A stretch of DNA of 64,000 bases from Pachysolen tannophilus NRRL Y-2460 (GCA_001661245.1 KV454015.1:475465-539464); one strand, 5' to 3'; shown: positions 4,800-51,081, counted from the first letter of the stretch. The notes: a model not told the origin generated them from the letters alone. Numbers and translations: made by a program.

Positions 4800-6266
4800 C
4801 TATTCCTTCATTTCGACATCTCCTTCTTCTTGTTCTTTTTTTTCTTCTTTGTGGTCATTTTCATCTTCTTTTGATTTTTCATTTTTCTCTTGTTCAACTT
4901 CACGTTTTACTTCTTGGTGTTCTTGTTCTTCTTCCTCCTCCATCTTCTCATCTCCATCTCCTTCATCCTCTCCTTCTTCTTCTTCTTCTTCTTCAGCTTC
5001 TTCAACGATATGTGGCTTGAAAATTTCAATCAAGTTATCATCACCAGAAGCAATCACTAAATCTTCCAAGATAGGACTCCATTGGAAATCACTAATTCCA
5101 CTAGTGAAACCTCCATGAATAAATTTCAGTATAGGATCATTATAATCAATATTTTTCACAAATTCCTGTTCATCAAAATCCTCATCATTCAATTTACTTA
5201 AATCCCAAATCATTAGTCTTCTATCTATAGAAGAACTCATCAACTGATTTGGTTTTAAAGGATTGAATTGTAATTGCAATATAGAAGCATTATGTCCATA
5301 TAATTTTCTAAAAGGTTTTGACATTTTTCTCAAATCCCAACAGTTTATCAAGTTATCAGAACCACCAGTGACTAATAAGTTTCCCAATTCTGGATTAAAA
5401 GACACTGCGTTAATATCGAAATTAGGTCCATGAGCCTGTTCTATTTTCAATAGTGGATTTTTAACATCTACTCCATTTTCAATCCTCAAATCATGAATTT
5501 GTAAAGTCTTATCATCACTAACAGAAGCAATCAAATAATTATATTTTTTATTCCAAGAAATATCGTTAATAACAGAATCATGTGTTTCAATAATTTTCTT
5601 TGGTTTAGAAACAGAAAAGGTTAAATCCCAAAAGGCAAGCTTTGTATCCTGAGTACCACTAATTAACTGATTTGGATTATTAGGATTCCATTCCAAACCA
5701 AATCCATCTTTAGTATGAAATTTCAATTCATATTCATAACTGGCTTCATTCTTGTCAACATTAAAAATTAAAATTGATCCAGAATTAGTTAAAGTTGCAA
5801 TCTTATTTCCTAAACAATTGAACCTAGCCTTGTTAACTTCACCAGGATGTTCCCACTGATGTAATAATTTTAAACTCTGCTCAATCCTAGATGAAGAAGT
5901 AGTAGATATTGGTAACAGTGTCTTATAATCATTTGATAATGATGCTGGTAAGTCAATGGAATAAATTTTCAAATAATCTTTTGAATTGGACGAAGTATTA
6001 GTTCCAACTAAAAACTTCAAGCTCACCATAGTCTTAGATTCATTCAACTTATAATAAGTTGGATGCCACTGAATGGTAAGATTTGGCCATTCAAACAGTC
6101 TAGTATAAATGGTATCATATAATAATGGAACCGTCTTCTTCCATATTTTAAATTCTTCATTGATGATTTTTTCATTCTCTTGATACCTCTTATTTCTATC
6201 AATTGGAGTCGGTACAGACTCCTTCTGAATACTATTGCTACCTCCTACTTCAGTTGCCGGTGCCAT
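4800..6266 (-). CDS. RbAp46/48-family WD40 histone-binding protein (Msi1/Hat2/Ume1-like) with acidic tail
   Basis: NEEFKIWKKTVPLLYD, EWPNLT, HPGEVNKAR, WD repeats, FIHGG; paralog identity unresolved. Confidence 0.88.
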   Translation of the reverse strand: MAPATEVGGSNSIQKESVPTPIDRNKRYQENEKIINEEFKIWKKTVPLLYDTIYTRLFEWPNLTIQWHPTYYKLNESKTMVSLKFLVGTNTSSNSKDYLKIYSIDLPASLSNDYKTLLPISTTSSSRIEQSLKLLHQWEHPGEVNKARFNCLGNKIATLTNSGSILIFNVDKNEASYEYELKFHTKDGFGLEWNPNNPNQLISGTQDTKLAFWDLTFSVSKPKKIIETHDSVINDISWNKKYNYLIASVSDDKTLQIHDLRIENGVDVKNPLLKIEQAHGPNFDINAVSFNPELGNLLVTGGSDNLINCWDLRKMSKPFRKLYGHNASILQLQFNPLKPNQLMSSSIDRRLMIWDLSKLNDEDFDEQEFVKNIDYNDPILKFIHGGFTSGISDFQWSPILEDLVIASGDDNLIEIFKPHIVEEAEEEEEEEGEDEGDGDEKMEEEEEQEHQEVKREVEQEKNEKSKEDENDHKEEKKEQEEGDVEMKE

Positions 6267-6465
6267 TTTTCAAGAGAAAGAGCTAATTAGAACACAATTA
6301 TAGTAATAAAATATTCAATTTAATTGTTAAAAATATATAAATATAAATATATATAAAAATATATATAAATTTAATAAAAATATGTTGAAACTATTTTTGA
6401 GCATAGATTTAAAAAATTTTGGAAACCAATATTTAATTATAAAATTGAATATACAAATATATACG

Positions 6466-7716
6466 ATGATGAACAGGTATAGAGTGCTTTATCTGGTGTT
6501 GCCTGTGTTATCTAGCTGTGCTAGCATTATTAATAGTCCATTTGGTGAATTACAAAACTATTTATCGATTTTTACAAATTCAGACACCAAATATTCACCT
6601 CAATGTCCAATTGATATTCCATATTCATGTTCTAACGATACACCAATATATGATTCTTGTTGTTTTGAGTCTCCTGGGGGTGTTGTTCTTCAAACTCAGT
6701 TTTGGGATTATTATCCACTGGTGGGGCCTGATGATATGTTTACGCTTCATGGGTTATGGCCTGATAATTGTGATGGTTCATATGAACAATTTTGTGATAG
6801 CAGTTTAAATATTCATGGTGATATTGAACAACAAGTTTTCCTAAAATATAATGAGACTGAATTATTGCATAAGATGAAAAAATATTGGAAGAATTTCAAT
6901 GGTGATGATGAGGAATTATGGGTTCATGAATTTAATAAACATGCAACTTGTATGACTACAATTAAACCTAGTTGTTATGGTAATTTTTATAAAGAATTTA
7001 TTAATGCTTTAAATTTCTTTAATGTTACTGTTAATCTTTTTGAGCAATTACCTACTTATAAGTGGTTGACTAGTAATGGGATTGTTCCATCAGAATCTCA
7101 AACTTATACAAGACAACAAATTGAAAATACTTTATCTTCACAATTTGGTCAACCTGTATATATTGGTTGTAATAGATATAATGCATTACAGGAAGTCTGG
7201 TACTTTCATCATGTTAAAGGTTCCATATTATCAGAAAATTTTGAACCAATTCCATCATTGTTAAATTCTCATTGTCCAGAAAGTAATATTAAATTTCTTC
7301 CAAAAAATTTTAAACCAACACCAACTGGTATTCCACCTCCTTCAAAACCTACAGATGGTACTTCATTACAAGGTTTTATCAAGCTAACAGGTAATGATGG
7401 ATGTTTGATAAGTAATGGTAAATGGTACAAGAGTGGTACATGTGCAACCTATCATCTAGTTAAAGCACCATTTGGTGGTTATAATTTAAGAACAAGCAAA
7501 GGTTATTGTGGTATTGATGATTATAATCAATTAGCATGTAATAGTAAGATAAGTCCAATGCAATTTCAATTCGATAAAGCTTCTAAATTGATTACTTTTG
7601 GTGGGAAATTTATTTGGAGTGCATATGAAGAACCTACAAAATGGAAACAAGTTCCAATTAGTCCAGGAGATGAAGGTGGAAGTCACATTTTTAAACTTAG
7701 ATTTGATTTTAGATAA
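6466..7716 (+). CDS. RNY1: Secreted/vacuolar RNase T2
   Basis: CAS I FTLHGLWPD, CAS II WVHEFNKHATC, signal peptide after ATG 6466, fungal C-terminal extension. Confidence 0.93.
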   Translation: MMNRYRVLYLVLPVLSSCASIINSPFGELQNYLSIFTNSDTKYSPQCPIDIPYSCSNDTPIYDSCCFESPGGVVLQTQFWDYYPLVGPDDMFTLHGLWPDNCDGSYEQFCDSSLNIHGDIEQQVFLKYNETELLHKMKKYWKNFNGDDEELWVHEFNKHATCMTTIKPSCYGNFYKEFINALNFFNVTVNLFEQLPTYKWLTSNGIVPSESQTYTRQQIENTLSSQFGQPVYIGCNRYNALQEVWYFHHVKGSILSENFEPIPSLLNSHCPESNIKFLPKNFKPTPTGIPPPSKPTDGTSLQGFIKLTGNDGCLISNGKWYKSGTCATYHLVKAPFGGYNLRTSKGYCGIDDYNQLACNSKISPMQFQFDKASKLITFGGKFIWSAYEEPTKWKQVPISPGDEGGSHIFKLRFDFR

Positions 7717-7900
7717 TTCAACATACAAAATTTTTCAATTACATTAAATCATTTTATTATTTTTTTATATTTTTAATTTTTTTACAAGAAATACATTTTG
7801 GTATCATCACTTTTAATCATTCCAATTTTCATTTTGATGCTATATGCTATCCGTAAAATTCCAAATGTCAAATTCGCCAAACCCCCCAAATCAAACAATC

Positions 7901-8308
7901 TTATGAAAGTAAATTTTTTTCAATCTTATCTGAAGCAACAAAATCCTTTGCTTTTTCTAAATTTTCACTTCTATCCTCATCATCTGAATTTTGATAATAT
8001 AAATTCTTTAGTTGGTTTCTCATATTACTATTATAAATATTATTAAATAATGTTGGTCAATCAGTAATTTTTAAAAATCAATTAAAAATACTAAAGAAAA
8101 AAAGAAAAAAAAATTAAACTTACATTGAGTACTCGGTAGCAGGTACTGATGAATTGGAAACTGAAATACCAATACCCATACCTTGTTGATTCCCATTTTT
8201 CTTACCGCCATTTTTCTTGCCGCGTGAAAATTCCTTATCATGCTGTGTTGTAATTTCATGTTCCTGCTGCATACCATCCAGATTAATCGATGAATTTTGC
8301 TGATCCAT
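7901..8308 (-). CDS. Putative two-exon orphan protein, 103 aa (exons 8308-8124 and 8027-7901)
   Basis: GTAAGT at 8123 overlaps the ORF-track stop; branch-like TACTGAT (8066-8060) or GACCAAC; TAG acceptor at 8028; phase-2 join restores an open frame to TAA at 7903-7901. Confidence 0.5.
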
Positions 8309-9699
8309 TATCTAACGAGATTCTATAATAAACCAAAAGAAGGAACTAACAGCTTAATCTAAAATAATATATATTACTTATGTCAAAACTAAAATTGGTA
8401 TTTCTTTAGATATATATATTTATATATATATATATAAATAGCAAGAATTAAAGAATTATAAAAGACAAGACATACACATAAATAGATACAGAAACAGAGA
8501 CAGAGATCAGGGGTATTAATGATTTTATTTTGTTGGTATTATTGAATCTTCACTATGTATAATATGCATGTGAATAACTTGCTGCGGAATAATTATTAGG
8601 ATTCACGCATAGAAAAGCAATCCAACAAGTAAGTAGTTGGCAGTATCACAACAACCAAAAGAAAGGGAAAGAAAGAGAGAGAAAGTGTGTGTGTATATAT
8701 ATGGGAAAAGAGGCAACAAATTAGAAATCTAGAATTGTACTAGAACTCATTGCTTGTACAAGAACTCATTGCCTTCATTTACCAGTGCCCAATGGTATTT
8801 TATTATATATAGCCTTCTGGAAGGAAGGAAAAAACAATGAAAAAATGAACTTAAAAGCACAGTATTTTATAATTGACTTAAAAGAGAATTAAAAAAGGTT
8901 TGGGGGTTACATCTGTTTCCCCCAAATAACAAAAAAGAATAACTCACATAAAAAAATAATTAAAGTAAAGCTTTATATGTATGAAGAAGAATGCATAATA
9001 ATAATAGAAGTTGTATCTTTGTAAGGAAAGAATAATTTTGTAATTGCTGTTCTGCTTCAAGATAAATTTTTTTTTTATTTTCAATTTTTCATATTAAACT
9101 AAAAATTTATTTAACATGTCTTTTAATTCGTTTAAGCTAAGGCTAATTTTAGTTTGAAATAGAACAAATGCCTTTTTCTTTTCTTTTTTCAAAAATAAAA
9201 AAAAAAAGAAAAAAAGAATTGTATCAAACTTTAGTAAACTATTAAACGGTAATAAACACTAAATATACTTGAAGTAAAATAAATAGTTGATCATCAGTTG
9301 GCGGAAAGTTGGACAAATACCAGTATAAATCCTCGGACAATTTTTTTACTATTAGTATCTATCTATCTATTTATCTATATCTATTATTTGCATTATCTAA
9401 AGGCAAGAAGAATAAGGCAAGAATAACAACATGACTTTTCTTTTTTTGCTTTTATTTAGTTTGTCAAGTTTTGCTTGCTTGTCTCAGATTTAACAATAAT
9501 TCTTCTTTATCACCAAGACAAAAAAAGAAAGAAAAAAAAATTTAGCCGTGTAAAGAGATAAACTCTTCCGAATAATATTCTAAATCATCATCAAACTCAT
9601 TTTATAACTTACTAATTTTTAAATAAAATTGAATTTTATTTTTCCAGTTCTTCCATTTTTCAATTTTTCACTTTCCGAAAATGTAAAAAATTACATCAA

Positions 9700-10565: not shown

Positions 10566-10700
10566 ATTATCTATCTGTATTGTATATATATTAAGCTGAA
10601 AATTTCCTCTTAAGTTTTATAAGAAAGGATCACCGTAGTTGGGAATCGTTAATAATTATTCATTATTTAATTATTTAATTATTTATTTAATAATTAAACG

Positions 10701-13529
10701 ATGAAGTTCCCAAAATTTTTCAGGGATAATACTGAAACAGCCAAAAGTGATGTTTCCATTGATGTTAATGATATTCAACGTCATAATGTAGCTTTGGAAT
10801 CAATTACTTCAAAAATTGGTATTTCTCCAGATAATGATAAGCAAGAACTTGATTTTACTGCAGTTACTTCAAATCCTATTTCTCTTGGAGAAGTTGGTGA
10901 AGATTTTACTGAAGAACAAAAAATTGCTCTTTTAAGACGTATGAATTATGATGGGTTATTAAATCTTGATGATTTACCTATTGATGCAACTTATATGATT
11001 GAAAAAATTCAAAGTTTAACTCTTAGTGAATCCATAAAAATTTTAAAGGATACTCTTAAAGAACATGAAGGTGATATTAACCTTACACCAGATTTAGAAT
11101 CATTTTTAAAACTGATTGTAGATGCTGCAGATTTTCATCAACCAATGGATTTAAATACAACTATTCCATTGGATCAAACCCTTGAAGATTCAAATGAAAA
11201 ATCGGATACAAAAGAAACAGGTTTTATCACTACTGATGATTTTGCTTCTTCTGGTTCATATTCAAAATCAAATAAACTTTATGAATTATATGATTGGAAA
11301 TTTCAAGCTCGTCTTGAAGCAGGTCTTATTAATTTCCATTCTTTATATCCAGAAGTTAGAGCTGTTACTCAACCATATGATTTCCCAAATGAACTTTGTG
11401 AAACTTTTAGAGCTTATTGTATTGCAATTCTTTGGCAATGTATTGGTACTTTTATAAATACTTATTTTTATATGAGACAACCAAGTATTTCTTTAGGTTT
11501 TGAAGCTGTTCAACTTTTCATTTATCCATGTGGTATTGCTTGGGCATATATTGTTCCTGATTGGTCAATTAAAATGCCATTTTATAAAGATTGGACAGTT
11601 AAATTAAATCCTGGTCCATGGACTGCAAAAGAACAAATGTTTGCAACTTTGATTTATATTGTTGAAGGTGGTCCTCCTCAATTTTATATCAATATTATTA
11701 CTCAAAGATCTCGTAATTTATTTTATAATTCTTGGGCTACTTGGGGATATCAAATATTGATTGGATTATCTTCTCAATTTTTAGGTTTTGGTATAGCAGG
11801 GTTTTTAAGACCTTTCTTTGTTTATGATGTAACAGCAATGTGGCCATCTTTACTTCCAATTGTTGCTGTTAATAAAGCATTGATGATTCCTGAAAAAAAG
11901 GAAAACATTAATGGTTGGAAAATTTCAAGATATATGTTCTTCTTGGGAGTATTTACATTATCATTTTTTTACTATTGGATTCCAGATTATTTATTTAATG
12001 CAGTTTCTGAATTTAGTTGGATGACATGGATAAGTCCAAATAATCTTAACCTTGAAAATATCACTGGTTTCAATAATGGATTGGGATTGAATCCAGTTAC
12101 AAGTTTCGACTTTAACGTTATGTGGTATTCAACACCATTGGTCAATCCAGTTTTTACAACTTTATTGACTTATGTTGGTGTTTTAATTGGATTCATTTGT
12201 ACCCTTGCAATCTATTATAAAAACTATTTTTACACTGGATATTTCCCAATTTTTAGTCAAACATTATATGATAACACTGGTAATGAATATGATCTTACAA
12301 ATATAGTCACTTCGGAGGGAACTTTAAATTCCACTGCTTATGAAGCATATAGTCCACCTTTTTATACAGCTGGATATATCGTTTATTTGGGTTCAATGTA
12401 TGCATTAATCCCATTTATGTTTGTCTATGTTTCAGTCATTTATCGTAAAGTAATTTGGAAAGGACTTAAATCAATTAAAAATGCAGTTACAGGTGGTGGA
12501 TCATCATACAAGTTTTTCCATGATCCATTTTGTCGTATGAATTCAGTATTCCCAGAAGTACCAGAATGGTGGTTTTTCGTCATATTGGTAATTTCAATTG
12601 TTCTTGGTATTGTTGGTGTTGAAATTTATCCAACAGATACACCAGTTTGGAGTATTTTCTTTTCTCTTGGGTTCAATATTGTTTGTATGATTCCATTTCT
12701 TATAATTTATTCAAGAACAGGAAGTTATATTTCACTTTCTGGTGTTATTGAAATTATTATTGGATATGCATTACCTGGTAAAGCAACACCTATAATGTTA
12801 GCATCTCTTTTTGGTTATAACATTGATGAACAAGCTCAAAATTATTTAACAAATCAAAAAATTGCTCATTATTCAAAAGTTCCACCTAGAGCAATGTTTA
12901 GAGGTCAAATAATTACTGTCACAATTAATCTTTTCGTAGTATTGGCTATAGCAAACTGGCAAGTTAGTAGTATAACAGATTTCTGCGAGTCAGATCAACT
13001 GGATAACTTTACTTGTCCTGATGCTGTTAACCTTTATGATACTTCAGTTGTTTTTGGTCTTATTGGTCCAAAGAATGTTTTCCATCATCTCTACCCAGTT
13101 TTGAAATATGGATTTTTAATTGGATTCCTTTTAACAATTCCATTTATACTGTTTAAACTCTATGCACCAAAGAAATGGACCCATTATGTTGAACCAGTTG
13201 TTATTTTGAACGGTCTTTCATCATTTTCACCACCTTATAATTTGAGTTATTATACACCAGGTTTATACTGGGGTATTGCATTTATGTGGTATTTAAAGAC
13301 AAGATATAGAGCATGGTGGGAAAAATACAACTATATTTTCTATAGTGGTATTCAAGCTGGAATTGCGTTTTCCGCTGTTATCATCTTCTTTTCTGTTCAA
13401 TATAATCCAAAAGATCTCGACTGGTGGGGAAACAATGTTATTGCAATAGGTTTAGAAGACACAACTGTAGGAATGTTGAATGCCACAGATACTCCAAAAG
13501 GATATGTAGGGCCAGACACATGGTGGTGA
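10701..13529 (+). CDS. OPT-family oligopeptide transporter (Opt2/Isp4-like)
   Basis: SLYPEVRA, NPGPWTAKEQ, YSKVPPR, DWWGN motifs; many TM helices. Confidence 0.93.
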   Translation: MKFPKFFRDNTETAKSDVSIDVNDIQRHNVALESITSKIGISPDNDKQELDFTAVTSNPISLGEVGEDFTEEQKIALLRRMNYDGLLNLDDLPIDATYMIEKIQSLTLSESIKILKDTLKEHEGDINLTPDLESFLKLIVDAADFHQPMDLNTTIPLDQTLEDSNEKSDTKETGFITTDDFASSGSYSKSNKLYELYDWKFQARLEAGLINFHSLYPEVRAVTQPYDFPNELCETFRAYCIAILWQCIGTFINTYFYMRQPSISLGFEAVQLFIYPCGIAWAYIVPDWSIKMPFYKDWTVKLNPGPWTAKEQMFATLIYIVEGGPPQFYINIITQRSRNLFYNSWATWGYQILIGLSSQFLGFGIAGFLRPFFVYDVTAMWPSLLPIVAVNKALMIPEKKENINGWKISRYMFFLGVFTLSFFYYWIPDYLFNAVSEFSWMTWISPNNLNLENITGFNNGLGLNPVTSFDFNVMWYSTPLVNPVFTTLLTYVGVLIGFICTLAIYYKNYFYTGYFPIFSQTLYDNTGNEYDLTNIVTSEGTLNSTAYEAYSPPFYTAGYIVYLGSMYALIPFMFVYVSVIYRKVIWKGLKSIKNAVTGGGSSYKFFHDPFCRMNSVFPEVPEWWFFVILVISIVLGIVGVEIYPTDTPVWSIFFSLGFNIVCMIPFLIIYSRTGSYISLSGVIEIIIGYALPGKATPIMLASLFGYNIDEQAQNYLTNQKIAHYSKVPPRAMFRGQIITVTINLFVVLAIANWQVSSITDFCESDQLDNFTCPDAVNLYDTSVVFGLIGPKNVFHHLYPVLKYGFLIGFLLTIPFILFKLYAPKKWTHYVEPVVILNGLSSFSPPYNLSYYTPGLYWGIAFMWYLKTRYRAWWEKYNYIFYSGIQAGIAFSAVIIFFSVQYNPKDLDWWGNNVIAIGLEDTTVGMLNATDTPKGYVGPDTWW

Positions 13530-13690: not shown

Positions 13691-14503
13691 TTAATAAATA
13701 AATAATATAATTTGCTTTTTGGAAACTTTTTCCATTAATTTTAAAAAATTTGAATTTTTAAACTTTTCTGAAGTTATTGTAGAATTATTTTTAAACGACA
13801 TTGCGTTTACAACCAATGAAGCAGTTTTAGCAAATTCATCTTTATCAAATAAAATTTCTTTTTCTTTTTCCTTTTCCTTTTCCTGTTCTTTTTCTTGTTC
13901 TTCTTTTTCAATATTTTCAAACATAGTGTTAAATTCCGAATCTTGTAATTCTATATGGTGTAATTCCTGATGCTCTGTTGGACCTTGTTGAATTGGACCT
14001 GCCATATACTGGGTGGTGTTATCAAGCATCAAGTTTCTTGATATAACGTTATCATTACTAACTGTGGATCGGAATCTTGGGGCTTGTTGTTGTTGTTGAA
14101 TATATTCTCGATTCCACTGGAAATCATTTTTCTGGCTATGAACATGACCTGCACTTGTATTATTCAAAGATAACCGAGAAAATTCATTTGTCCATTGTTG
14201 AGTAGAGTTATTATTTAGCTGAGGACCTTGATGTATCTCGTTCACACCACGATGCCCACTTGAAACAATAACATCATGATTTAATGGACTATAACTCAAA
14301 CTACTGTGAATATTATTATTAAAATTTTGGAAATCATTTTCAAGTCCTTTGTCTATTTGATTAAACTTATTTAAAAATGGACTTTGATGATTTTGCCGCC
14401 CTTGATTTCTTATTATATGATCTTGTTGTAAACTTCTATCTGCATGAGCATGATTAGAAAATTTCTGCAAAGCATTTGAAGTACCGCAAGATGATTCATT
14501 CAT
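13691..14503 (-). CDS. PEX20: PTS2 co-receptor Pex20/Pex21-like
   Basis: N-terminal Cys motif SCGTSNALQKF, WxxxF/Y motifs WTNEF and WNREY, Pex7-binding KFKNSNFLKLM. Confidence 0.8.
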   Translation of the reverse strand: MNESSCGTSNALQKFSNHAHADRSLQQDHIIRNQGRQNHQSPFLNKFNQIDKGLENDFQNFNNNIHSSLSYSPLNHDVIVSSGHRGVNEIHQGPQLNNNSTQQWTNEFSRLSLNNTSAGHVHSQKNDFQWNREYIQQQQQAPRFRSTVSNDNVISRNLMLDNTTQYMAGPIQQGPTEHQELHHIELQDSEFNTMFENIEKEEQEKEQEKEKEKEKEILFDKDEFAKTASLVVNAMSFKNNSTITSEKFKNSNFLKLMEKVSKKQIILFIY

Positions 14504-15495: not shown

Positions 15496-16551
15496 ATGTC
15501 TATTACTATGTTGCAAGATCTTTATGATCGCGTATTTGATTCCAAATATTTACAACAGTTAGATTCAACTTTTCCTCCACCAGTTTCTATTTCGTTAAAG
15601 CCATCCTTAGTGAAGGGAATACCTGATGGGATACTTGCACTTGTTGCTCCAATAGTTGCTTATTGGACTTATTCAATTTTTTTCCATATTATTGATGTTT
15701 ATGAATTAGCTGAATATTATAGAATACATACTCCTGAAGAGATTTTGAAAAGAAATAAATCAACTCAATCAGAGGTTATTAGAGATGTGATAATTCAACA
15801 TATAATTCAAAGTATTGCTGGGATAATTGTTTATTCATTTGATCCACTTCCAACAACAGGTTTTGAAATAAATGCAATGTGGCAAATTAAAAAGAGAATT
15901 CCATTTCCTATACCAAATGAACTTATCTTTATACTTTATACAGTGGTGATTCCATTTTTAAGAATTTTTATTGCTTTCATAATAATAGATACTTGGCAAT
16001 TTTTCCTTCATAGATTGATGCATTTGAATAAATATTTGTATAAACGGTTTCATTCAAGGCATCATAGACTTTATACCCCATACGCTTTTGGTGCCTTATA
16101 TAATGACCCTGTGGAAGGGTTCTTACTAGATACTGCAGGATCAGGGTTAGCTGCAATAATTACAAATTTATCTCCAAGAGAACAAATCATCTTGTATACT
16201 TTTTCAACATTGAAAACAGTGGATGATCATTGTGGATATGCATTCCCTTGGGATCTTTTCCAAATAATTTTCCCAAATAATTCAATTTATCATGATATCC
16301 ATCATCAACATTTTGGTATAAAAAATAATTTTTCACAACCTTTTTTCACATTTTGGGATAAATGGTTTAAAACAGAATATCACGGTATTGATGAATACAA
16401 GAAAAACGCAAGAAAGATGAATATTGAAAAATATCATCTGTTTTTAGAAAATAGACACAAAAAGAGATTACAACAACAACAGAACAATAAAGAAAACTCA
16501 GAATACTCAGAGAATGATGATGAAAATCCATCTACCAAGAAGAAGGAATAA
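15496..16551 (+). CDS. SUR2: Sphinganine C4-hydroxylase
   Basis: His boxes HRLMH, HSRHH, DDHCGY, HDIHH; YAFGALYN; NFSQPFFTFWD. Confidence 0.96.
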   Translation: MSITMLQDLYDRVFDSKYLQQLDSTFPPPVSISLKPSLVKGIPDGILALVAPIVAYWTYSIFFHIIDVYELAEYYRIHTPEEILKRNKSTQSEVIRDVIIQHIIQSIAGIIVYSFDPLPTTGFEINAMWQIKKRIPFPIPNELIFILYTVVIPFLRIFIAFIIIDTWQFFLHRLMHLNKYLYKRFHSRHHRLYTPYAFGALYNDPVEGFLLDTAGSGLAAIITNLSPREQIILYTFSTLKTVDDHCGYAFPWDLFQIIFPNNSIYHDIHHQHFGIKNNFSQPFFTFWDKWFKTEYHGIDEYKKNARKMNIEKYHLFLENRHKKRLQQQQNNKENSEYSENDDENPSTKKKE

Positions 16552-20418: not shown

Positions 20419-20490
20419 GGGCGTGTGGTCTAGTGGTATGATTCTCGCTTTGGGTGTGAGAGGCCCTGGGTTCAATTCCCAGCTCGCCCC
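20419..20490 (+). tRNA. tRNA-Pro(UGG), intronless
   Basis: 72-nt cloverleaf GGGCGTGTGGTCTAGTGG...anticodon TGG...GGTTCAATTCCC AGCTCGCCCC; oligo-T Pol III terminator from about 20498. Confidence 0.97.
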
Positions 20491-20879: not shown

Positions 20880-21286
20880 NNNNNNNNNNNNNNNNNNNNN
20901 NNNNNNNNNNNNNNNNNNNNNNNNNNNNNNNNNNNNNNNNNNNNNNNNNNNNNNNNNNNNNNNNNNNNNNNNNNNNNNNNNNNNNNNNNNNNNNNNNNNN
21001 NNNNNNNNNNNNNNNNNNNNNNNNNNNNNNNNNNNNNNNNNNNNNNNNNNNNNNNNNNNNNNNNNNNNNNNNNNNNNNNNNNNNNNNNNNNNNNNNNNNN
21101 NNNNNNNNNNNNNNNNNNNNNNNNNNNNNNNNNNNNNNNNNNNNNNNNNNNNNNNNNNNNNNNNNNNNNNNNNNNNNNNNNNNNNNNNNNNNNNNNNNNN
21201 NNNNNNNNNNNNNNNNNNNNNNNNNNNNNNNNNNNNNNNNNNNNNNNNNNNNNNNNNNNNNNNNNNNNNNNNNNNNNNNNNNNNNN
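20880..21286. other. Assembly gap (N run)
   Basis: Ns flanked by poly-A. Confidence 1.
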
Positions 21287-24649: not shown

Positions 24650-26053
24650 TTAGCCATTTTGTCTTAGGATTTTAGATACAATTTCGGCATTTTCTCTTGG
24701 GATCATGACTATACTTGATCTTGCCATTGATAAGTAACTCATCTCAAATATTGTATCAGTTTCGGTATTTTTACCATTGTTATTGTTATTATTATTATTA
24801 TTATTATTATTAGTTTGTTCGCTTATCTTTGTTTCTTCTTTTATTAATCTGCTAGCTACACCAGCAACAATTCCTTTTGAATCCACAGGTAATTTGAATA
24901 AATCTATAGTTATAGGTATTATTATATCACTTGTAGAACCAACTAAATTTTTAGAATAAAATCCTAATCTTGAACGTTGTCTTGAAGAACAAGGTAATAA
25001 TAATGCAACTTCTTGAGGTGATGTTTTAGTTATAGCAAAATATTTAGGAAATTCTGCAGATGCATTTGGTGGATATTTGGAAAGTGCATTTGCAGCTGTT
25101 ATTACTGTTTTTGAAGCTTCCCTTGAGCGTGCACCAGTAAGTAATAATTTGATTCCAGGAAAAATTTTAGGTTTAACGTTGACCCGTTTGAATAAGTTGA
25201 AAGTTTTAACATCTAAATCTTCATCTATGTTATCTTTATTATCAGTATCATTATCAGTATCAGCATTGGCATCAGTAGATTCTAATCCAACATTTTGGCT
25301 CGAGTCTTGTCTCAAGTCTTGGCTCACTATATAACTTCCTGCAATATTTGAAAAACTATAACCTTTCTCTTCTAATAATTTAATTACTTTATCTTTAGCT
25401 TGTTCTGGTATAACTACAATATCTGAAAAATAACTACTCAAGAAAAATAACGAAATACCAGCTTTCGATAATGGTTCAGTTAATTCCAATACTCTTTTAC
25501 CAACGTTTAAACCATCTCCTGCAACTTGTAAAAAATAAAAATTATCTTCTAAAAGTTTAACATTATAATTTAATTTTTGTGAAATTTCAATAGCTTCTTT
25601 AAAAAAATAAAGAAAAATTGTAGGAAACATTAACGTACATTCATCTGGTGTTAAAGCTAAATGGAAAAATTTTTCATCCTCAACATCAACTTCCTCATTT
25701 TCTTCATCTCGTTTTTCATGATTCCCATTCGTGGCACTCGGCACTTGTGGTATTAATGAAACCTGTGATTCAGTTAAAGAATCTTTCTTACTAGATGCCG
25801 ACCAATCTGATACGTCCGACACCCCACCACCACCGCCACCATTACCTTCAAATTCATTCTCATCATCATCTTCATCATCATCATCACTGGAACCTCCTGA
25901 CCCGTTCGAGAATAACTCCTCACTAACACTATCAAATGTCTCTATTGAATTATGCAATAATCTTTGAATGCCATTTGAAAAAAGCCAATAATTTTCTCTA
26001 GGAATCGATAAAATCGATATCTTTGTACTAGATAATTGAACTTGTGTATTCAT
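24650..26053 (-). CDS. CASTOR/GATS-like ACT-domain protein
   Basis: FFHLALTPDECTL, RVLELTEPLSKAGISLFFLSSYFSDIVVIP, GIVAGVASRL, MSYLSMA; ATG at 26053. Confidence 0.8.
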   Translation of the reverse strand: MNTQVQLSSTKISILSIPRENYWLFSNGIQRLLHNSIETFDSVSEELFSNGSGGSSDDDDEDDDENEFEGNGGGGGGVSDVSDWSASSKKDSLTESQVSLIPQVPSATNGNHEKRDEENEEVDVEDEKFFHLALTPDECTLMFPTIFLYFFKEAIEISQKLNYNVKLLEDNFYFLQVAGDGLNVGKRVLELTEPLSKAGISLFFLSSYFSDIVVIPEQAKDKVIKLLEEKGYSFSNIAGSYIVSQDLRQDSSQNVGLESTDANADTDNDTDNKDNIDEDLDVKTFNLFKRVNVKPKIFPGIKLLLTGARSREASKTVITAANALSKYPPNASAEFPKYFAITKTSPQEVALLLPCSSRQRSRLGFYSKNLVGSTSDIIIPITIDLFKLPVDSKGIVAGVASRLIKEETKISEQTNNNNNNNNNNNNGKNTETDTIFEMSYLSMARSSIVMIPRENAEIVSKILRQNG

Positions 26054-26914: not shown

Positions 26915-27208
26915 NNNNNNNNNNNNNNNNNNNNNNNNNNNNNNNNNNNNNNNNNNNNNNNNNNNNNNNNNNNNNNNNNNNNNNNNNNNNNNNNNNNNNN
27001 NNNNNNNNNNNNNNNNNNNNNNNNNNNNNNNNNNNNNNNNNNNNNNNNNNNNNNNNNNNNNNNNNNNNNNNNNNNNNNNNNNNNNNNNNNNNNNNNNNNN
27101 NNNNNNNNNNNNNNNNNNNNNNNNNNNNNNNNNNNNNNNNNNNNNNNNNNNNNNNNNNNNNNNNNNNNNNNNNNNNNNNNNNNNNNNNNNNNNNNNNNNN
27201 NNNNNNNN
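26915..27208. other. Assembly gap (N run)
   Basis: Ns flanked by poly-T. Confidence 1.
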
Positions 27209-30228: not shown

Positions 30229-30960
30229 TTAATTATGGCTTTCAAATGTCAGACAAGTTTTTGTGGCACACGAAGTTGCACTTGCGGGATTAACTCCAGT
30301 GACTATTCTATTATCAACAATTGAATAATCATCAAATGGCAGTGGAGGTTCTTGATAAATACCTTTATTTTTACTTGCAATATATTTAACTGTATGTAAA
30401 TTTAATTTTTTTAAAGAACCATCAACACCTGCCAATTTTTCTCCTTCATCTGTAAAACCAGTGACTTTAATACCTTCAATTAATGGTGTACCATTTGATT
30501 TGAGTAAATTATCAAAGATCACAGGGCCATGACAAACAGCAGCAACAACACCACCTTTATCATAGATTTCACTAGCTAATTTATGAAGACCTTTAGCATT
30601 AGGGAAATCAAATACAGCTCCATGACCTCCAGCAGCGAAAAATATACCATAATCAGAAGAAGAAACATTTTTAGAAGGTTTACACAGAGTTTCAAGTAAT
30701 TTTCTAATATTATACTTATCAGTATAATTCTTATAACCTTCTAATTCTTCAGAATTAAGATACATTGAAGAAATTGAATGTTCATCAACTGATGTTGAAC
30801 CTGTTTCTGAAACTATATCAACATCATAACCTTTTTCTTTAAAAACTTTATAAGGATGAGAAACTTCGGAATAAAAAACTCCAGTCTTGTCACCATTTTC
30901 ATAAAATGGCTCAGATGAAGAAGTAACAGCCAATAATACTTTCTTAGGTAAACCAGACAT
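30229..30960 (-). CDS. HSP31: DJ-1/PfpI glyoxalase III, Hsp31 family
   Basis: KKVLLAVTS, TGVFYSEVSHPY, AGGHGAVFDF, catalytic AVCHGP, VTGVNPASA. Confidence 0.93.
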   Translation of the reverse strand: MSGLPKKVLLAVTSSSEPFYENGDKTGVFYSEVSHPYKVFKEKGYDVDIVSETGSTSVDEHSISSMYLNSEELEGYKNYTDKYNIRKLLETLCKPSKNVSSSDYGIFFAAGGHGAVFDFPNAKGLHKLASEIYDKGGVVAAVCHGPVIFDNLLKSNGTPLIEGIKVTGFTDEGEKLAGVDGSLKKLNLHTVKYIASKNKGIYQEPPLPFDDYSIVDNRIVTGVNPASATSCATKTCLTFESHN

Positions 30961-31558: not shown

Positions 31559-32586
31559 GTTATTGTTGTTGTTATTGATTAATGTACTGATAGAAGATCG
31601 AGAGGAATTTAAAGGTTCCATCAATTGATCAATCATATTCACAGGGGTTACCGCTCTAACTGTATCCATTGACGTTGTCAGTGTTGTTGACAGTGTTGTT
31701 GATCTTCCCGCTGAGGACGATAAAGCCGGTATTGGTGTTGACGAAGTTGCCGCAGTGGAATCCAAAGCTGTTGATGAAGAAGATTTACCATTACCTTCAT
31801 CTAAAGCATCATAAATAGAAGGTATTGTTAATGCCATTGTAGTTGCAGCTGCAAAAGATTTTTTTCTCTTTTTTTTAGGTAAAAATTCTTCTTTCTTAGG
31901 ATATGAAATTGTATAAATTAACATTCTATTATTTGTTCTATGCAGTTTTGGAGATCCAGAAAATTCTAAATTAATTAAACAATTATTAATATGATTTTCT
32001 TTTTCTTTTTCTGAAATTCCTGCAATACGCTCATTACATACTGGACATCGATTTTGTAAACTTTCCTCATCATCAAATTCAGAACTATCTTCATCTTCTG
32101 TATTATCTGAAGTGGATTTCCTTTTACTATCACCACCTCGATGACGAAACTTATAATTTTTTTTATTATGATTTCCCCCTCTAATATTCAAAGTTGATGA
32201 CCGACTAATATCCTTAACAGATGAAGAAGAATCATCTATTGAAGAATTAGTAGTGCCAGTGGCATTATTACTATTACCACCACCTCCATTGATCGCAAGT
32301 GTGGCTGAAACGTTCAACGCATTTCTAATCATTTCAATCTCCTCATAACATGTATCACAAGTTCTATGTGGAACATGAGGACTCTCCAAGAAAATCTGTG
32401 ATGGCGGAGAAACCACATAAGTTGATGGTAAATAAGTAATTTGTCTTGATGAACAATCATCACAAACAACCCTCCCACATTTCCTACAATGATGTTTCCT
32501 ATGCCAAAATGTAAACAGTGACCCACATATAGGACAATTCTCTACATCCTCATCTGCTTGCCATGTAGATACCGCCAACTGCTGAA

Positions 32587-34668: not shown

Positions 34669-36156
34669 ATGTCGTCTTCATTGGGAACATCTAGAGTTGG
34701 TAAGAAAACTGGTCATTTAAAGCACAAGAAGGAGAGTGCTATTGAATTAGCTGCAAAGATAAAGCAAAGAGCATTAGAAGCTAGTAAGAATAAGAATAAA
34801 AATAAGAGTAATGAAAAGTTACAACATCAAGAAATAACGAAACAAGAAGAAGAAGAAAATGAGAGTGAGGTTAGTGTTGGTGATAATGATGATGGTGGTA
34901 AAGTATTTGAATCATTTAAAGAGTTGAAACTTGTACCTGAATTATTAGAATCATGTGAGCAAATGAATTTTACAAAACCAACTCCTATTCAAGCAGAAGC
35001 TATACCTCATGCTTTAGAAGGTCATGATATTATTGGATTAGCCCAAACTGGGTCGGGGAAGACAGCTGCGTTTGCTATACCTATACTTCAGGCTTTATGG
35101 TATGCACAAACTCCATATTTTGCCTGTGTATTGGCACCAACAAGAGAATTAGCATATCAAATTAGAGAAACTTTTGATGCATTAGGATCAAATATGGGAC
35201 TTAGATGTGTTACAATAGTGGGTGGAATGGATATGATGGATCAGGCAAGAGATTTAATGAGGAAACCTCATGTTATTGTTGCAACACCTGGTAGATTAAT
35301 GGATCATTTAGAACATACAAAAGGTTTTTCATTAAGAGCATTAAAATATTTAGTTATGGATGAAGCTGATAGATTATTAGATATGGATTTTGGACCTGCT
35401 TTAGATAAAATTTTAAAAATAATACCAAAGGAAAGAATTACTTATTTATTTTCTGCAACAATGACAAGTAAAATTGAAAAATTACAAAGAGCTTCATTAC
35501 ATAATCCAGTTAGAGTTGCTGTTTCTGATAAATATTCAACTGTTGATACTTTAATTCAATCATTAATGGTTGTACCTGATGGTTATAAAAATACTTTTTT
35601 AATTTATTTACTTAATGAATATGTTGGTAAATCAATGATAATTTTTACAAGAACTTGTGCACATACTCAAAGAACTGCTTTATTAGCAAGAATTTTAGGA
35701 TTTTCTGCAATTCCATTACATGGTCAATTATCTCAATCTCAAAGATTAGGTGCTTTAAATAAATTTAAATCAGGTGAAAGACAAATATTAGTAGCAACAG
35801 ATGTTGCAGCAAGAGGTTTAGATATACCAGATGTTGATATTGTAATTAATTATGATATTCCAACAGATTCAAAAGCATATATTCATAGAGTAGGAAGAAC
35901 TGCAAGAGCTGGAAAATCAGGTAAATCAATATCATTAGTAACACAATATGATTTGGAATTAATCTTAAGAATTGAAAACGTTATTGGAACAAAATTACCA
36001 AAAGATGTTCCTGATAAAGATATAATTCTTTCATTACATGATAGCGTCGATAAAGCATTTTCAGAAGCAGTACGTCAAACAAAAGAGTTTCACGATAATA
36101 GAAAAGAAAATGGAAGAGATAGAAGACATAGAAATACAGACAGAAACGAAAAATAA
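34669..36156 (+). CDS. RRP3: DEAD-box rRNA helicase Rrp3
   Basis: [40 protein letters not shown] signature. Confidence 0.96.
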
Positions 36157-36361: not shown

Positions 36362-36400
<39 letters not shown>

Positions 36401-36418
36401 GAGTGTTTAGAGTGGGAG

Positions 36419-37777
36419 ATGATTATGGGTTCATTTATTCAGTCGATTACTTCATTTTTTGAAATTCCTGGTTTTAATTGGAAATTATTAATTCTTGGTT
36501 TTACTGCAGCTAATTTTGTATTTGATTCTTATTTAAGTTTACGTCAAATTAAACATTTAAAAGCAACTCATGATAAAGTTCCAGTGGAATTACAAGAAAA
36601 GATAGATGCCAAGACAGCGCTTAAATCTCAAGATTATTCATTGAGTAAATTGAAATTTTCAATGTTTAGTGGTATTTATTCTTTAATTCAAGATGTTCTT
36701 GTTATGAAATATGATATATTACCTATTGTTTGGTCAAAATCTTTTGAAATAATGATTAAATTTAATGAAAAATTACCATTATTTAATTTTATGTCTGGTT
36801 CTATAACTCAATCATTAATTTTTTTTGGTCAATTTGGTTTATTAAGACTTTTATTATCACTTCCAATTAGTTATTATCAAAATTTTGTATTAGAAGAAAA
36901 ATTTGGATTTAATAAATTAACTTTTAAACTTTGGATTACTGATATGTTAAAAGAAATTCTGGTTTCTGTTATATTAGGTTTCCCATTCTTGGCTATTTTT
37001 TTAAAGATTATTGATTATTTTGGTGATAATTTTATGTTTTATCTGTCAAGTTTTTTATTTATATTTCAAATTTTTATTGTTATTGTTTATCCAAAATTTA
37101 TTCAACCATTGTTTAATAAATTAACACCATTAGAAAATGGAGATTTAAAATCATCTATTGAAAAATTAGCTGCAGATAATAAATTCCCATTGGATAAGCT
37201 TTACGTTATTGATGGATCAAAAAGATCTTCTCATTCAAATGCTTATTTTTTAGGTTTACCATGGGGACCAAAACAAATTGTTATTTATGATACTTTAATT
37301 GAACATTCTTCAGTTCCTGAAACAACAGCTGTATTAGGTCATGAAATTGGTCATTGGGCTTTATCTCATACAACAAAAATGTTATTAATTAGTCAAGTTC
37401 ATACTTTTGCTATTTTAACTTTATTTGCAGGATTTGTTAAAAATAATTCTTTATATCAATCTTTTGGTTTTTATAAAGATCAACCAATTTTAATTGGTTT
37501 CATCTTATTTGGTGATATCTTATCACCATTGGATGCTTTCATCACATTCTTAATGAATTTATTAAGTAGAAAATATGAATATCAAGCAGATGAATATTCA
37601 GTTAATTTAGGTTATGCAAAAGAATTATCCAATGCTTTAATTATTTTACACAAAGAAAACTTGAGCTCAATGAGTGTTGATTGGTTATACAGCGCTTACC
37701 AGTATAATCATCCTCACTTAACAGAAAGATTAAGAGCTATCAATAAATTAGTTGCAAATGAAAAGAAACAAGAATAA
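36419..37777 (+). CDS. STE24: CAAX prenyl protease (M48)
   Basis: DGSKRSSHSNAYF, HEIGH, EYQAD, HPHLTERL. Confidence 0.96.
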   Translation: MIMGSFIQSITSFFEIPGFNWKLLILGFTAANFVFDSYLSLRQIKHLKATHDKVPVELQEKIDAKTALKSQDYSLSKLKFSMFSGIYSLIQDVLVMKYDILPIVWSKSFEIMIKFNEKLPLFNFMSGSITQSLIFFGQFGLLRLLLSLPISYYQNFVLEEKFGFNKLTFKLWITDMLKEILVSVILGFPFLAIFLKIIDYFGDNFMFYLSSFLFIFQIFIVIVYPKFIQPLFNKLTPLENGDLKSSIEKLAADNKFPLDKLYVIDGSKRSSHSNAYFLGLPWGPKQIVIYDTLIEHSSVPETTAVLGHEIGHWALSHTTKMLLISQVHTFAILTLFAGFVKNNSLYQSFGFYKDQPILIGFILFGDILSPLDAFITFLMNLLSRKYEYQADEYSVNLGYAKELSNALIILHKENLSSMSVDWLYSAYQYNHPHLTERLRAINKLVANEKKQE

Positions 37778-42404: not shown

Positions 42405-42441
<37 letters not shown>

Positions 42442-43335: not shown

Positions 43336-43511
43336 ATAAGTAGTAATAATTGTAATACAATATTGTATATATATATGAAATATTGTAACGAGTTTATAAT
43401 TGAAGAATTAATCTATATCAATCTTCTGTTTAGCTTGATTTAGTTTAGTTGAGAGGTATATATTTATTGGAGCCAAAAAAAGAAATTATTTGTTTTTGCT
43501 TTTTGGGGAAA

Positions 43512-44951: not shown

Positions 44952-45182
44952 AACAAATTTTTTATCTTTACGCTGTTTTCACTTCTATATCGTTTATCTC
45001 AGATAATATTTTTTTTTATTTTTTATTTTAGGCCCTTTTCCAATTATTCTTCTTAATGATTGATTGCTATTAATAGTATTTATATATGTCACAAAACGAA
45101 AGTATTCCAATTTCTTATTAACTGTTGTAATTCTATATAATTTCAATCTACTTCAGTAGAAAAAAAAAAACATAAAAAAAAA

Positions 45183-45475
45183 NNNNNNNNNNNNNNNNNN
45201 NNNNNNNNNNNNNNNNNNNNNNNNNNNNNNNNNNNNNNNNNNNNNNNNNNNNNNNNNNNNNNNNNNNNNNNNNNNNNNNNNNNNNNNNNNNNNNNNNNNN
45301 NNNNNNNNNNNNNNNNNNNNNNNNNNNNNNNNNNNNNNNNNNNNNNNNNNNNNNNNNNNNNNNNNNNNNNNNNNNNNNNNNNNNNNNNNNNNNNNNNNNN
45401 NNNNNNNNNNNNNNNNNNNNNNNNNNNNNNNNNNNNNNNNNNNNNNNNNNNNNNNNNNNNNNNNNNNNNNNNNNA
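45183..45475. other. Assembly gap (N run)
   Basis: Ns flanked by poly-A. Confidence 1.
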
Positions 45476-45668
45476 AAAAAAAAAAAAAAAAAAAAAAAGA
45501 TACTAAATGCTAATAAATAATATACAAAAAGAAAAAACAAATGGTAGATAATAAGTCAAGCTGTAAAAACATAAAATATATAAAAAGTCTAATATAGAAA
45601 AGGAAAATATAATGCACAAGAGAGAAAACCACCCAAAATAAAGAAAAGAAAAAAAAATATAGTATTCA

Positions 45669-47951: not shown

Positions 47952-48702
47952 CTAGAGTTTATAGTTGGAAGTCCGAATAATATTCCTTATTAAATTGTTT
48001 TCATTATTTATGTCACTAAAAACATAGTAGTTGGTCAGTGAGTACTTTTTTTTTTTTTTTTTTTGTTAGCATCAGCTATGGTTGTTGATAATAATAATAG
48101 TTATTATCATTCTTTGACGCAGCTGCCGAGAATGCTGCCGAGTGTGCCGCCGAGTATGCCACCAAATGAAAATCGAGATCGTAGTGGTGGTAATGGTAAT
48201 GGTAATGGTAATAGTGGCCAGGATTTGAATTTGTCGTATTCGGATGATGATTTGGTTCGGTTTACGCAGACAAAGTTACAAGGGTTACAACATCAAATTT
48301 TAGGTTCTAGAGATTATCTTTCATCACGATATTTATTAAATTTGGTTGAGAAATCTTCTAACGCTGATTCGTATTCTTTTTGTTGTTGTTCTTCTTCTTC
48401 TTCATTATCATCATCAACTAATTTAGATCTTTTAAACGGGGATTTAAACTACACGACCAAAATTTTCATTTTGTAAAATTTTATTCACATAGAAAAATAT
48501 TGAAAAGTTGAGTTGAATAATAGGTAGGATATAAGGTGTTTGGTTGGTTATTTAGAGAGAGAGAGAGATAGTTGTAGAGAGAGTCAAATAGTTTTCTGAC
48601 TTTTTCTTTTTTTTTTTTTTTACAACGTTCAAGAGTTGTTTCAAACTTTTGTAAAAAGAGCAAAGATAGATTGAGATTAAACTTGAAACAAGAGAGTTAG
48701 TG

Positions 48703-51081
48703 ATGACATCGAAGAGGGAAGGAATCGAGATTAGTAGGGACATTTCTGTTGCTGGTAAGAATGGGAAGAAGGCTCCGATTGATTTGTTATCTATAACTGA
48801 GTCGTTGGGGTATCAGACTTTTAGAAGAGAGAGTAGACGACCATGGACTAAAGAAGATGATGAGATTTTAAAACTGGCTGTTATGGAACAACATATTAAT
48901 GGTGGGAACTCATCTTTGAGTTCTTTGGATGTTGATTTGATTAAGTGGGATTTGGTTTCTGGTAAGTTTAGTAATGGGTCGAGGAAGCCAAAGGATTGTA
49001 AGAAAAGATGGACTAGTTCTTTGGATCCGACTTTAAGAAGAGGTAAATGGACACCGATGGAAGATTCCAAGTTGATAGAAGCATTTAAGAAATATGGTGC
49101 TTCTTGGCAAAAAGTTTCAAAAGAAATTGAAGGAAGAAATGATGATCAGTGTGCTAAACGGTATATGGAAGTACTAGATCCAACTACAAAAGATCGGTTA
49201 AGACCTTGGGATAATGAAGAAGATTTAGCCTTAATAAGAAAAGTTAAAAAATATGGTACTAAATGGAGAGCAATATCTTTGGAGATGACTGGAAGGCCTA
49301 GTTTAACTTGTAGAAATAGATGGAGAAAAATAGTTACTGATGTTGTTAGAGGTAAGGCAGATGCTTTAATTACACGCGAGGTTGATTTAATTAATGGTAC
49401 AGGTGAAGGAACTCTGAGAATTGCAGGTATGATATTTGGTACTTCTAAATCGGAGAAACAAGATGAAGTAGAAGATCAAGAAGATCACGATAATGATGCT
49501 AATGACATTGATACGAATAAATACAACAATATTGGGAACAACTCTACTCCAGGGGTATCAGGGATTTTTTCTCAAAAAAATTCACCAAGATCTGATAGAG
49601 AAAATACCCCATTAACACAACTTTCAAATGTTTTAGAAAGACAAATGATTGATATTAATAGAAGGCAATATCAAGCTAATAATAGTGGGATTAATAATAA
49701 TAATAATAATAACGATATGAATTTAAATTTGAATTCCCCTCAATATTCATCAATTCATAGTTTACCTCCAATGAATTCTCAATCTCAGGGACCCGTACAA
49801 TCAAAAACCGAATGGAAATATTTCTTAACCACAAGTCAAGGTCAGGAGATACCAAATGGATTTGGAACTATCTCATCACAGGAAAGCGCACAGACTTTAA
49901 TAGATCTAGCGAAATCCCATAATATAAATATTACAGTTCATCAACATATTACACATCATTACGCACCACAACATCAGAGAAGCTTGGATCCGGAAACTCA
50001 GCTTTCAAGATATCAACATTTCAATTATCTTCCTCCATTAACAGAAGTTCCAAAGCTAACTAGTTCAAATTCAAGTCCAACTAGTAGTAATGGATCAAAC
50101 AATAAGGAAAGCGATTTAGCTAAACTATTGAACAATAGTGATAAAACTATTAGATCTAAAAACAATAGTAGATCTGAATATGAACTGGGAAAAGTGCTGT
50201 CTCAAAATTACTCTTCTTACAAAAATAAAAACGATACTGACAATAATGATAGATTTTCAAGTTATGGTACTTCCAGACAGCAGTTAGTTCCAAGCACACG
50301 ATCTGCAGAGTCTCATTTATCAAATGAGAGGAAAAGATTTACTCACTCATCTATACCTGAAACCGGTCATTCAACAACTTCAAGTACCAACACCGACAAT
50401 GGTAATGTTACTCATGATACTACTACCACTACTAATACTACTACTACCACTAATACTAACGCTAACGCTAATGCTAATGCTACTGTTAGTAATGGTTCTG
50501 TAAAAAACAACTATGATGGAATGTTTGTTACAGAAGATATAGATGAAGAATTGGATTTCTGGGAAACGATGAGATCTCTTACTCAAGTTAGACAAAATCA
50601 TCATACATCTTCTCATTATGCTAATAAAAACCAACCTCAAAATTTCGACAATAATAATGGGAAATTACCTGGATCCGGGTATAGCGGTAGCACCATACAT
50701 CACTCCAGTTATCATCCTATTCATAACCAGCCAACCGATACATCTGTGGCCAGCACATATGAAATTGTTTATGGTATAAATGATTATTATGGTATGGAAG
50801 AAGATGACGAAGATGAAGAAATGGATACGGAGAGTGATGATAACACGAATAACGACGTGGACAGTCCAAACTACATTACAAGTGCCACACCTCTTGCAAA
50901 CTCAGCAACTACCAATTCAGCAACTAACAATTCAGCAGCTACAAACTCAGCAGCTACCAATTCAGCAACTGCAAATGTTACAACAGTTGCTAGTGCTGGA
51001 ACTAATTCTAGCACCACGAACAATACCGCCGAAGGCTCTCAGTTCAGTATATTTGGACTATTTCCATTCAATCCTTCTTAA
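48703..51081 (+). CDS. BAS1: Myb transcription factor Bas1
   Basis: ITESLGYQT, three Myb repeats, DQCAKRY, RPSLTCRNRWRKI, C-terminal PFNPS. Confidence 0.93.
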   Translation: MTSKREGIEISRDISVAGKNGKKAPIDLLSITESLGYQTFRRESRRPWTKEDDEILKLAVMEQHINGGNSSLSSLDVDLIKWDLVSGKFSNGSRKPKDCKKRWTSSLDPTLRRGKWTPMEDSKLIEAFKKYGASWQKVSKEIEGRNDDQCAKRYMEVLDPTTKDRLRPWDNEEDLALIRKVKKYGTKWRAISLEMTGRPSLTCRNRWRKIVTDVVRGKADALITREVDLINGTGEGTLRIAGMIFGTSKSEKQDEVEDQEDHDNDANDIDTNKYNNIGNNSTPGVSGIFSQKNSPRSDRENTPLTQLSNVLERQMIDINRRQYQANNSGINNNNNNNDMNLNLNSPQYSSIHSLPPMNSQSQGPVQSKTEWKYFLTTSQGQEIPNGFGTISSQESAQTLIDLAKSHNINITVHQHITHHYAPQHQRSLDPETQLSRYQHFNYLPPLTEVPKLTSSNSSPTSSNGSNNKESDLAKLLNNSDKTIRSKNNSRSEYELGKVLSQNYSSYKNKNDTDNNDRFSSYGTSRQQLVPSTRSAESHLSNERKRFTHSSIPETGHSTTSSTNTDNGNVTHDTTTTTNTTTTTNTNANANANATVSNGSVKNNYDGMFVTEDIDEELDFWETMRSLTQVRQNHHTSSHYANKNQPQNFDNNNGKLPGSGYSGSTIHHSSYHPIHNQPTDTSVASTYEIVYGINDYYGMEEDDEDEEMDTESDDNTNNDVDSPNYITSATPLANSATTNSATNNSAATNSAATNSATANVTTVASAGTNSSTTNNTAEGSQFSIFGLFPFNPS

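Follow-up and report, generated by a model that had tools for sequence, protein, structure and literature searches.

Homologous columns and public protein records point to CTG as an alanine codon in a 64-kb stretch of yeast DNA

The window and its CTG codons

The window analyzed here is a stretch of 64,000 nucleotides (KV454015.1:475465-539464) that is AT-rich—24 to 34% GC in 4-kb bins—and carries 27 open reading frames (ORFs) of at least 150 amino acids, which Pfam identifies as ordinary budding-yeast genes. We asked which amino acid the codon CTG specifies in these genes. The DNA very probably derives from a yeast of the CUG-Ala group (the order Alaninales, comprising Pachysolen, Nakazawaea and Peterozyma), and most probably from Pachysolen tannophilus itself; in this group, the nuclear codon CUG is read as alanine (NCBI translation table 26). 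The phenomenon itself is already known: CTG as alanine was published in 2016 and is not new. A first-pass annotation of the window had proposed that CTG probably encodes alanine here, a claim that is now supported both by a column-likelihood test and by the public records of the same DNA.

Across the 27 ORFs, CTG occurs in frame 73 times among 14,357 codons (5.1 per 1000, or 2.7 per ORF), and 23 of the 27 contain at least one. The particular CTG codons on which the first-pass annotation was built all turned out to be CTG and in frame, with peptide contexts and coordinates reported correctly. With 73 occurrences against 44 for CTA, the CTG/CTA ratio amounts to 1.66. The corresponding ratio of G-ending to A-ending codons lies between 0.09 and 0.16 in the GCN, TCN, CCN and ACN boxes (GCG/GCA 0.11; TCG/TCA 0.16), and CTG is therefore unlike a member of a CTN leucine box.

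Column likelihoods and public protein records

Four genes with CTG codons in alignable regions were used as test genes: a Hat2-like gene (120 homologues), an Hsp31-like gene (119 besides its own record), an OPT transporter gene (119 besides its own record) and a Ste24-like gene (150). Homologues were aligned using MAFFT with CTG masked as X. Every codon was then scored in the manner of Codetta, except that weighted column frequencies with pseudocounts took the place of Pfam profiles. Ten usable CTG columns were scored, while the gap-rich column at Hsp31-92 was left out and entered only an 11-column robustness run. The CTG columns of the four genes are given below, with homologue residues in one-letter code and X marking the CTG codon.

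Hat2/RBBP4-like WD40 gene 4803-6266 (-), codon 57, at 6098-6096, context YTR-X-FEWP: A 77, V 19, S 18, gap 3, T 2, I 1 of 120, leucine 0; public record alanine
Hat2-like gene, codon 117, at 5918-5916 (-), variable position with poor alignment: F 46, gap 17, S 15 and others, among 120
Hat2-like gene, codon 380, at 5129-5127 (-), context DPI-X-KFIHGG: L 117, F 2, V 1 of 120; public record alanine
OPT oligopeptide transporter gene 10701-13526 (+), codon 138: K 29, R 26, E 13, L 12 of 119
OPT gene, codon 767, at 12999-13001 (+): K 33, R 19, T 17, P 16, A 14, S 10 of 119, with no leucine among the residues listed; public record P0245 alanine
OPT gene, codon 817, at 13149-13151 (+): A 71, L 24, I 16, V 6, C 1, P 1 of 119, serine 0; public record alanine
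Hsp31/DJ-1-like gene 30232-30960 (-), codon 92: insertion, gap in 112 of 119 homologues, unusable
Hsp31-like gene, codon 207, at 30342-30340 (-): G 72, D 16, S 8, T 8, A 5 of 119, with no leucine among the residues listed
Hsp31-like gene, codon 237 (-): K 24, E 20, A 19, Q 14, I 13 of 119
Ste24-like CAAX protease gene, codon 181, at 36959-36961 (+), transmembrane column: L 45, A 25, V 25, F 17, I 11, G 8, S 3 of 150; public record from 36425 alanine
Ste24-like gene, codon 209, at 37043-37045 (+): L 42, V 38, A 28, I 11, C 9, T 8, S 3 of 150; human ZMPSTE24 A, S. mikatae I

Summed over the 10 columns, alanine was the best of the 20 amino acids for CTG, followed by leucine at -6.1 nats, with serine at -8.4 nats. 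As a control, all 44 other codons with at least five usable columns recovered their standard amino acid, leaving CTG as the sole exception among 45. The alanine that the first-pass annotation gave for RBBP4 (THALEWP) at the position of Hat2 codon 57 agrees with the column, in which 77 of the 120 homologues carry alanine.

The ranking was insensitive to most choices of analysis. In the 11-column run, which paired different pseudocounts with different sequence caps, alanine ranked first in each of the nine settings and lost that rank in only one of 99 leave-one-out tests. The Ala-minus-Leu difference ranged from 2.1 to 9.2 nats over these settings; the Ala-minus-Ser difference lay between 3.6 and 8.4 nats when the 10-column test is included. 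Among 5000 sets of 10 genuine leucine columns drawn from these four genes, not one attained the Ala-minus-Leu value of CTG (mean -22 nats, as compared to the +6.1 observed), and likewise none of 5000 sets of 10 genuine serine columns reached the observed Ala-minus-Ser value. At the level of single columns, the probability of alanine was at least 0.05 in eight of the 10 CTG columns, that of leucine at most 0.03 in five and that of serine at most 0.03 in four.

Public protein records of the same DNA provided a second line of evidence. Nine of the window's ORFs have such records (NCBI/UniRef), and these give alanine at 21 of 21 CTG codons, that is, at 21 of the 73 in the window. An exact look-up of CTG = alanine translations (NCBI/UniRef/nr) retrieved seven of 17, namely the Hat2-like, Gut2-like, PHD-finger, Sur2-like and GPHR-like proteins in addition to the RNase T2 from position 6466 and the Ste24-like protease from position 36425; all seven are placed on one contig of 1,269,836 bases. 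The leucine (table 1) and serine (table 12) translations of Hat2, Gut2, PHD, Sur2 and GPHR were looked up in the same way, and none of the five was present in the public collection under either code. Two further own records, found by homology—P0125 for the Hsp31-like gene and P0245 for the OPT transporter—carry alanine at six of six CTG sites, including all three in P0125. To our knowledge, alanine for CTG is given by NCBI table 26 only. Taken together with the alanine in the records, this implies that the depositors had already treated the organism as a CUG-Ala yeast.

For two genes, the public model is shorter than the longest ORF and has a later start: the model of the RNase T2 gene (6382-7713, +) begins at 6466, its 29th codon, and that of the Ste24-like gene (36419-37774, +) at 36425, its third codon. 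Of the versions looked up for these two genes, the shorter ones alone gave exact matches. Neither the NUDIX protein translated from its second methionine nor the RNase T2 from its 30th codon had an exact match in the public collection.

Further CTG sites and surroundings

Beyond the four test genes, CTG codons were compared with homologues of solved structure (PDB searches, two to five homologues per site). These comparisons are purely descriptive and were kept out of the likelihood; they are given here along with the remaining sites of the first-pass annotation.

RNase T2 (Rny1-like) gene, at 6718-6720 (+), context YYP-X-VGP: S in actibind, G in RNase Rh, K and T in plant enzymes; public record from 6466 alanine
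Sur2-like fatty-acid hydroxylase gene, codon 315, at 16438-16440 (+), context KYH-X-FLE: outside the Pfam domain; alanine translation public, leucine and serine versions not
Pib1-like FYVE/RING gene, codon 71, at 32518-32516 (-), context CGS-X-FTF: G, V, K and E in solved FYVE domains
Pib1-like gene, codons 346 and 350, at 31693 and 31681, spanning 31693-31679 (-): low-complexity tract STT-X-STT-X-TT, which cannot be aligned
Ssf1-like Brix gene, codon 149, at 33793-33791 (-), context SPQ-X-TK: A in S. cerevisiae Ssf1, T in Chaetomium, K in human
Ssf1-like gene, codon 350, at 33190-33188 (-), context KATK-X-AKK: D, E and E in homologues; variable charged tail
Ssf1-like gene, putative exon 2, at 34255-34253 (-), context EEQL-X-KIP: precedes the long ORF's first ATG and shares its frame
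Gut2-like glycerol-3-phosphate dehydrogenase gene, codon 201, at 41130-41128 (-), context GCK-X-YDF: V, L and M in bacterial solved homologues; public record alanine
Bas1-like Myb gene, codon 58, at 48874-48876 (+), context ILK-X-AV: in frame; the first Myb repeat lies outside the PDB alignments
Ctk1-like C-terminal domain (CTD) kinase gene, codon 336, at 54419-54421 (+): E in S. cerevisiae Ctk1, L in human CDK9

The six sites compared in this manner (Ssf1-149, Ssf1-350, Gut2-201, the RNase T2 site, Ctk1-336 and Pib1-71) are variable rather than leucine columns, and they do not separate alanine from serine.

The Ssf1-like gene appears to extend beyond its long ORF. A putative first exon, ATG GGT AAG AGA AGA, lies at 34392-34378 (-) and is followed by GTAAGT; a TACTAAT box is found at 34333-34327 (-), and a TAG stands directly before the point at which the frame resumes. 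These signals would define an 80-base intron at 34377-34298 (-), placing the CTG at 34255-34253 in exon 2 and moving the true start 155 bases upstream from the long ORF's first ATG.

With respect to the Hat2-like gene, its closest relative in our searches, P0001 (56% identity), is known from read assemblies only. It shares the unusual HGGF motif and has leucine at the column of codon 380 and valine at that of codon 57. If P0001 stems from a CUG-Ala yeast and was translated using the standard code, its leucine at the 380 column could itself be a CTG. In the window's own protein, the motif residue preceding codon 380 has diverged as well, being I where 107 of 120 homologues have C.

CTG is not spread evenly over the ORFs. 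The window maximum of 11 is found in the patatin-like lipase ORF (61812-63917, -), where 10 of these codons fall beyond the Pfam domain, in a C-terminal half rich in Ser, Pro and Asn. The ORFs at 34669-36156, 57361-58953, 24650-26053 and 13691-14503 contain no CTG at all, and the DEAD-box helicase and the Hsp70-family protein are among them; as a candidate explanation, genes with high expression may avoid a codon that is rare.

Pfam further identified an oxysterol-binding protein, the Hat2/RBBP4-like WD40 protein, the RNase T2, the OPT transporter, the Sur2-like hydroxylase and a GPHR-family membrane protein; two FYVE proteins, the Hsp31/DJ-1-like and Ssf1-like Brix proteins, the DEAD-box helicase, the Ste24-like protease, a NUDIX protein and the Gut2-like dehydrogenase; and a ubiquitin hydrolase, the Bas1-like Myb protein, the Ctk1-like kinase, the Hsp70-family protein, an F-box protein and the patatin-like lipase. 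The sole RNA gene detected in the window by Rfam and ARAGORN encodes a transfer RNA (tRNA), tRNA-Pro(TGG), at 20419-20490, and one masked block of N lies 390 bases downstream of it. In total, the window contains 995 N, distributed over three blocks and two single positions (15413 and 27216). The blocks, at 20880-21286, 26915-27208 and 45183-45474, comprise ~290 to 410 N each and are all intergenic.

The stretch is contained in five sequencing runs from two studies, with no RNA run listed among them. Three homology searches returned best non-self matches that were only 56 to 64% identical, the named ones belonging to Pichiales, Phaffomycetales and Serinales; Pachysolen is not among the names listed. 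These affiliations agree with a position within Pichiomycetes, and the low identity together with the lack of a Pachysolen name agrees with a monotypic, long-branched genus. On the simplest reading, the window would be P. tannophilus itself.

Alternative readings and the known alanine code

A number of observations weigh against alanine. The strongest single datum is Hat2 codon 380, which the first-pass annotation had itself flagged as a counter-example in a usually leucine column. The exception is real, leucine being present in 117 of the 120 homologues, P0001 included, and when this column is kept and the best alanine column is removed, the Ala-minus-Leu difference shrinks to between 0.3 and 2.2 nats, depending on the parameters. 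Leucine is the plurality residue in three of the 10 columns (Hat2-380, Ste24-181 and Ste24-209), as compared to two for alanine, three for lysine and one each for glycine and phenylalanine. The summed alanine score exceeds background by only 2.7 nats, and only 0.2% of genuine alanine column sets fall as low on Ala-minus-Leu as CTG does, meaning that CTG columns are much less conserved and more hydrophobic than those of ordinary alanine codons. Rfam and ARAGORN, run over this window, detected no tRNA(CAG) within it. As to the public records, 10 of the 17 alanine look-ups were without a match, and annotation is the annotators' choice, not a measurement. The missed look-ups are likely explained by other start codons, as shown for two genes, or, for the rest, by introns or alternative starts. 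From the window alone, CTG as alanine is favored but not proven.

The proposed origin of this code would account for the weakness of the column signal. In the scenario put forward in the literature, the ancestral tRNA-Leu(CAG) would have been lost and an alanine tRNA would have gained the anticodon CAG. Alanyl-tRNA synthetase would have kept charging this CAG tRNA with alanine, because the enzyme recognizes G3:U70 in the acceptor stem together with A73 rather than the anticodon. Most CTG codons of today would then be alanine codons of recent origin at scattered sites of low conservation. The single-base neighbors of CTG are codons for leucine (TTG, CTN), valine (GTG), methionine, proline, glutamine and arginine. 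New CTG = alanine codons are therefore expected at tolerant hydrophobic or variable positions, where they would give rise to a weak column signal and an occasional leucine column without any ambiguity in decoding. For the DNA in hand, we infer the species, the tRNA and the decoding in the cell.

Three other readings of CTG were weighed. Under the standard code, it would be a rare leucine codon of an AT-rich yeast, and this would account for the near-invariant leucine at Hat2-380 (117/120), for the leucine pluralities at both Ste24 sites (45/150 and 42/150) and for the leucine found in human CDK9 at the Ctk1-like site and in one bacterial GlpO at the Gut2-like site. We nevertheless regard it as extremely improbable, given that leucine is absent or nearly so in five of the 10 deep columns (0/120 at Hat2-57, for example), that alanine surpassed leucine by 2.1 to 9.2 nats in all settings with 0/5000 leucine resamples matching, that CTG is commoner than CTA in a genome of 28% GC, and that the public collection holds the alanine but not the leucine translations of five genes. 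Hardly any probability remains, either, for serine, be it decoded as in Candida (Ser1, table 12) or as in Ascoidea and Saccharomycopsis (Ser2). Serine does occur in the small or polar columns, such as Hat2-57 (18/120), OPT-767 (10/119) and Hsp31-207 (8/119), as well as in actibind at the RNase T2 site, and the Thr/Ser-rich Pib1 tract—read as natural for alanine in the first pass—would look equally natural with serine. Set against this are its absence from OPT-817 (0/119) and Hat2-380 (0/120), its rarity at each Ste24 site (3/150), a deficit of 3.6 to 8.4 nats relative to alanine with 0/5000 serine resamples matching, and the lack of serine translations of the five genes in the public collection.

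A mixed or stochastic decoding, in which CTG would mostly be alanine but also leucine to a meaningful degree, can be proposed by analogy with the dual Ser/Leu decoding described for Ascoidea asiatica in the cited part of PMC6041473. It would accommodate the CTG columns being less alanine-like than ordinary alanine codons (the 0.2% tail) and the one to three leucine-type columns among the 10. We consider it very unlikely: young alanine codons derived from TTG, CTN and GTG neighbors would be expected in hydrophobic, weakly conserved columns in any case, so that ambiguity is unneeded, and ambiguity is undetectable from sequence alone. In P. tannophilus, according to the relevant section of PMC4937558, residues other than alanine at CUG were roughly as infrequent as errors at AUG. 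A variant holds that a minority of CTG codons, Hat2-380 for instance, are relics kept by a leucine reading that is either low in rate yet functionally relevant or dependent on context, in which case there would be a Leu/Ala dual-decoding remnant of the reassignment and not a clean switch; this, too, we consider very unlikely.

The preferred reading, CTG as alanine in a yeast of the Alaninales, can be compared with what has been described for that order. The first-pass annotation had described CUG = alanine as established for Pachysolen tannophilus, and the sections of Mühlhausen et al. 2016 (PMC4937558) and Krassowski et al. 2018 (PMC5951914) that bear on this point bear it out and extend it, respectively. 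The former report that the P. tannophilus tRNA(CAG) carries the alanine identity elements G3:U70 and A73, that alanine accounted for 97.2% of the 907 CUG positions with full support in liquid chromatography–tandem mass spectrometry (LC-MS/MS), and that the non-alanine fraction there was approximately the error level at the unambiguous AUG. The latter place Nakazawaea and Peterozyma with Pachysolen in one alanine clade, sister to the Leu2 (Pichia/Ogataea) clade, which Groenewald et al. 2023 (PMC11182611) named the order Alaninales with CUG = alanine as a diagnostic trait, as far as the cited passages go. The window resembles this code (table 26) in that its CTG columns fit alanine best and its public records give alanine at 21 of 21 sites, and no difference emerged among the features compared. 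Codon occurrence agrees as well: the corresponding passage of PMC4937558 gives CUG in 80% of P. tannophilus genes, with 16,824 CUG codons in 5288 proteins; in the window, 23 of the 27 ORFs contain CTG, and the average is 2.7 per ORF.

The serine codes are related in kind. CUG-Ser1 (Candida, table 12, Serinales) is likewise a reassignment of this codon in budding yeasts via a tRNA with anticodon CAG, but one that yields serine, whereas serine here scores 3.6 to 8.4 nats worse than alanine and serine translations are not the public ones. CUG-Ser2 (Ascoidea, Saccharomycopsis), counted as the third independent CUG reassignment in budding yeasts in the pertinent part of PMC5951914, differs in having two competing tRNAs and a Ser/Leu outcome that is stochastic in Ascoidea asiatica; there was no sign of either in the window.

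As a discovery, our analysis adds nothing: the reassignment, its tRNA and the proteomic proof date from 2016, the limits of the clade were drawn in 2018 and its name followed in 2023, and CTG is already translated as alanine in the public records of this DNA. For the handling of this DNA, it means that a standard-code translation would put leucine in place of alanine at 73 codons, spread over 23 of the 27 long ORFs, and that table 26 is required.

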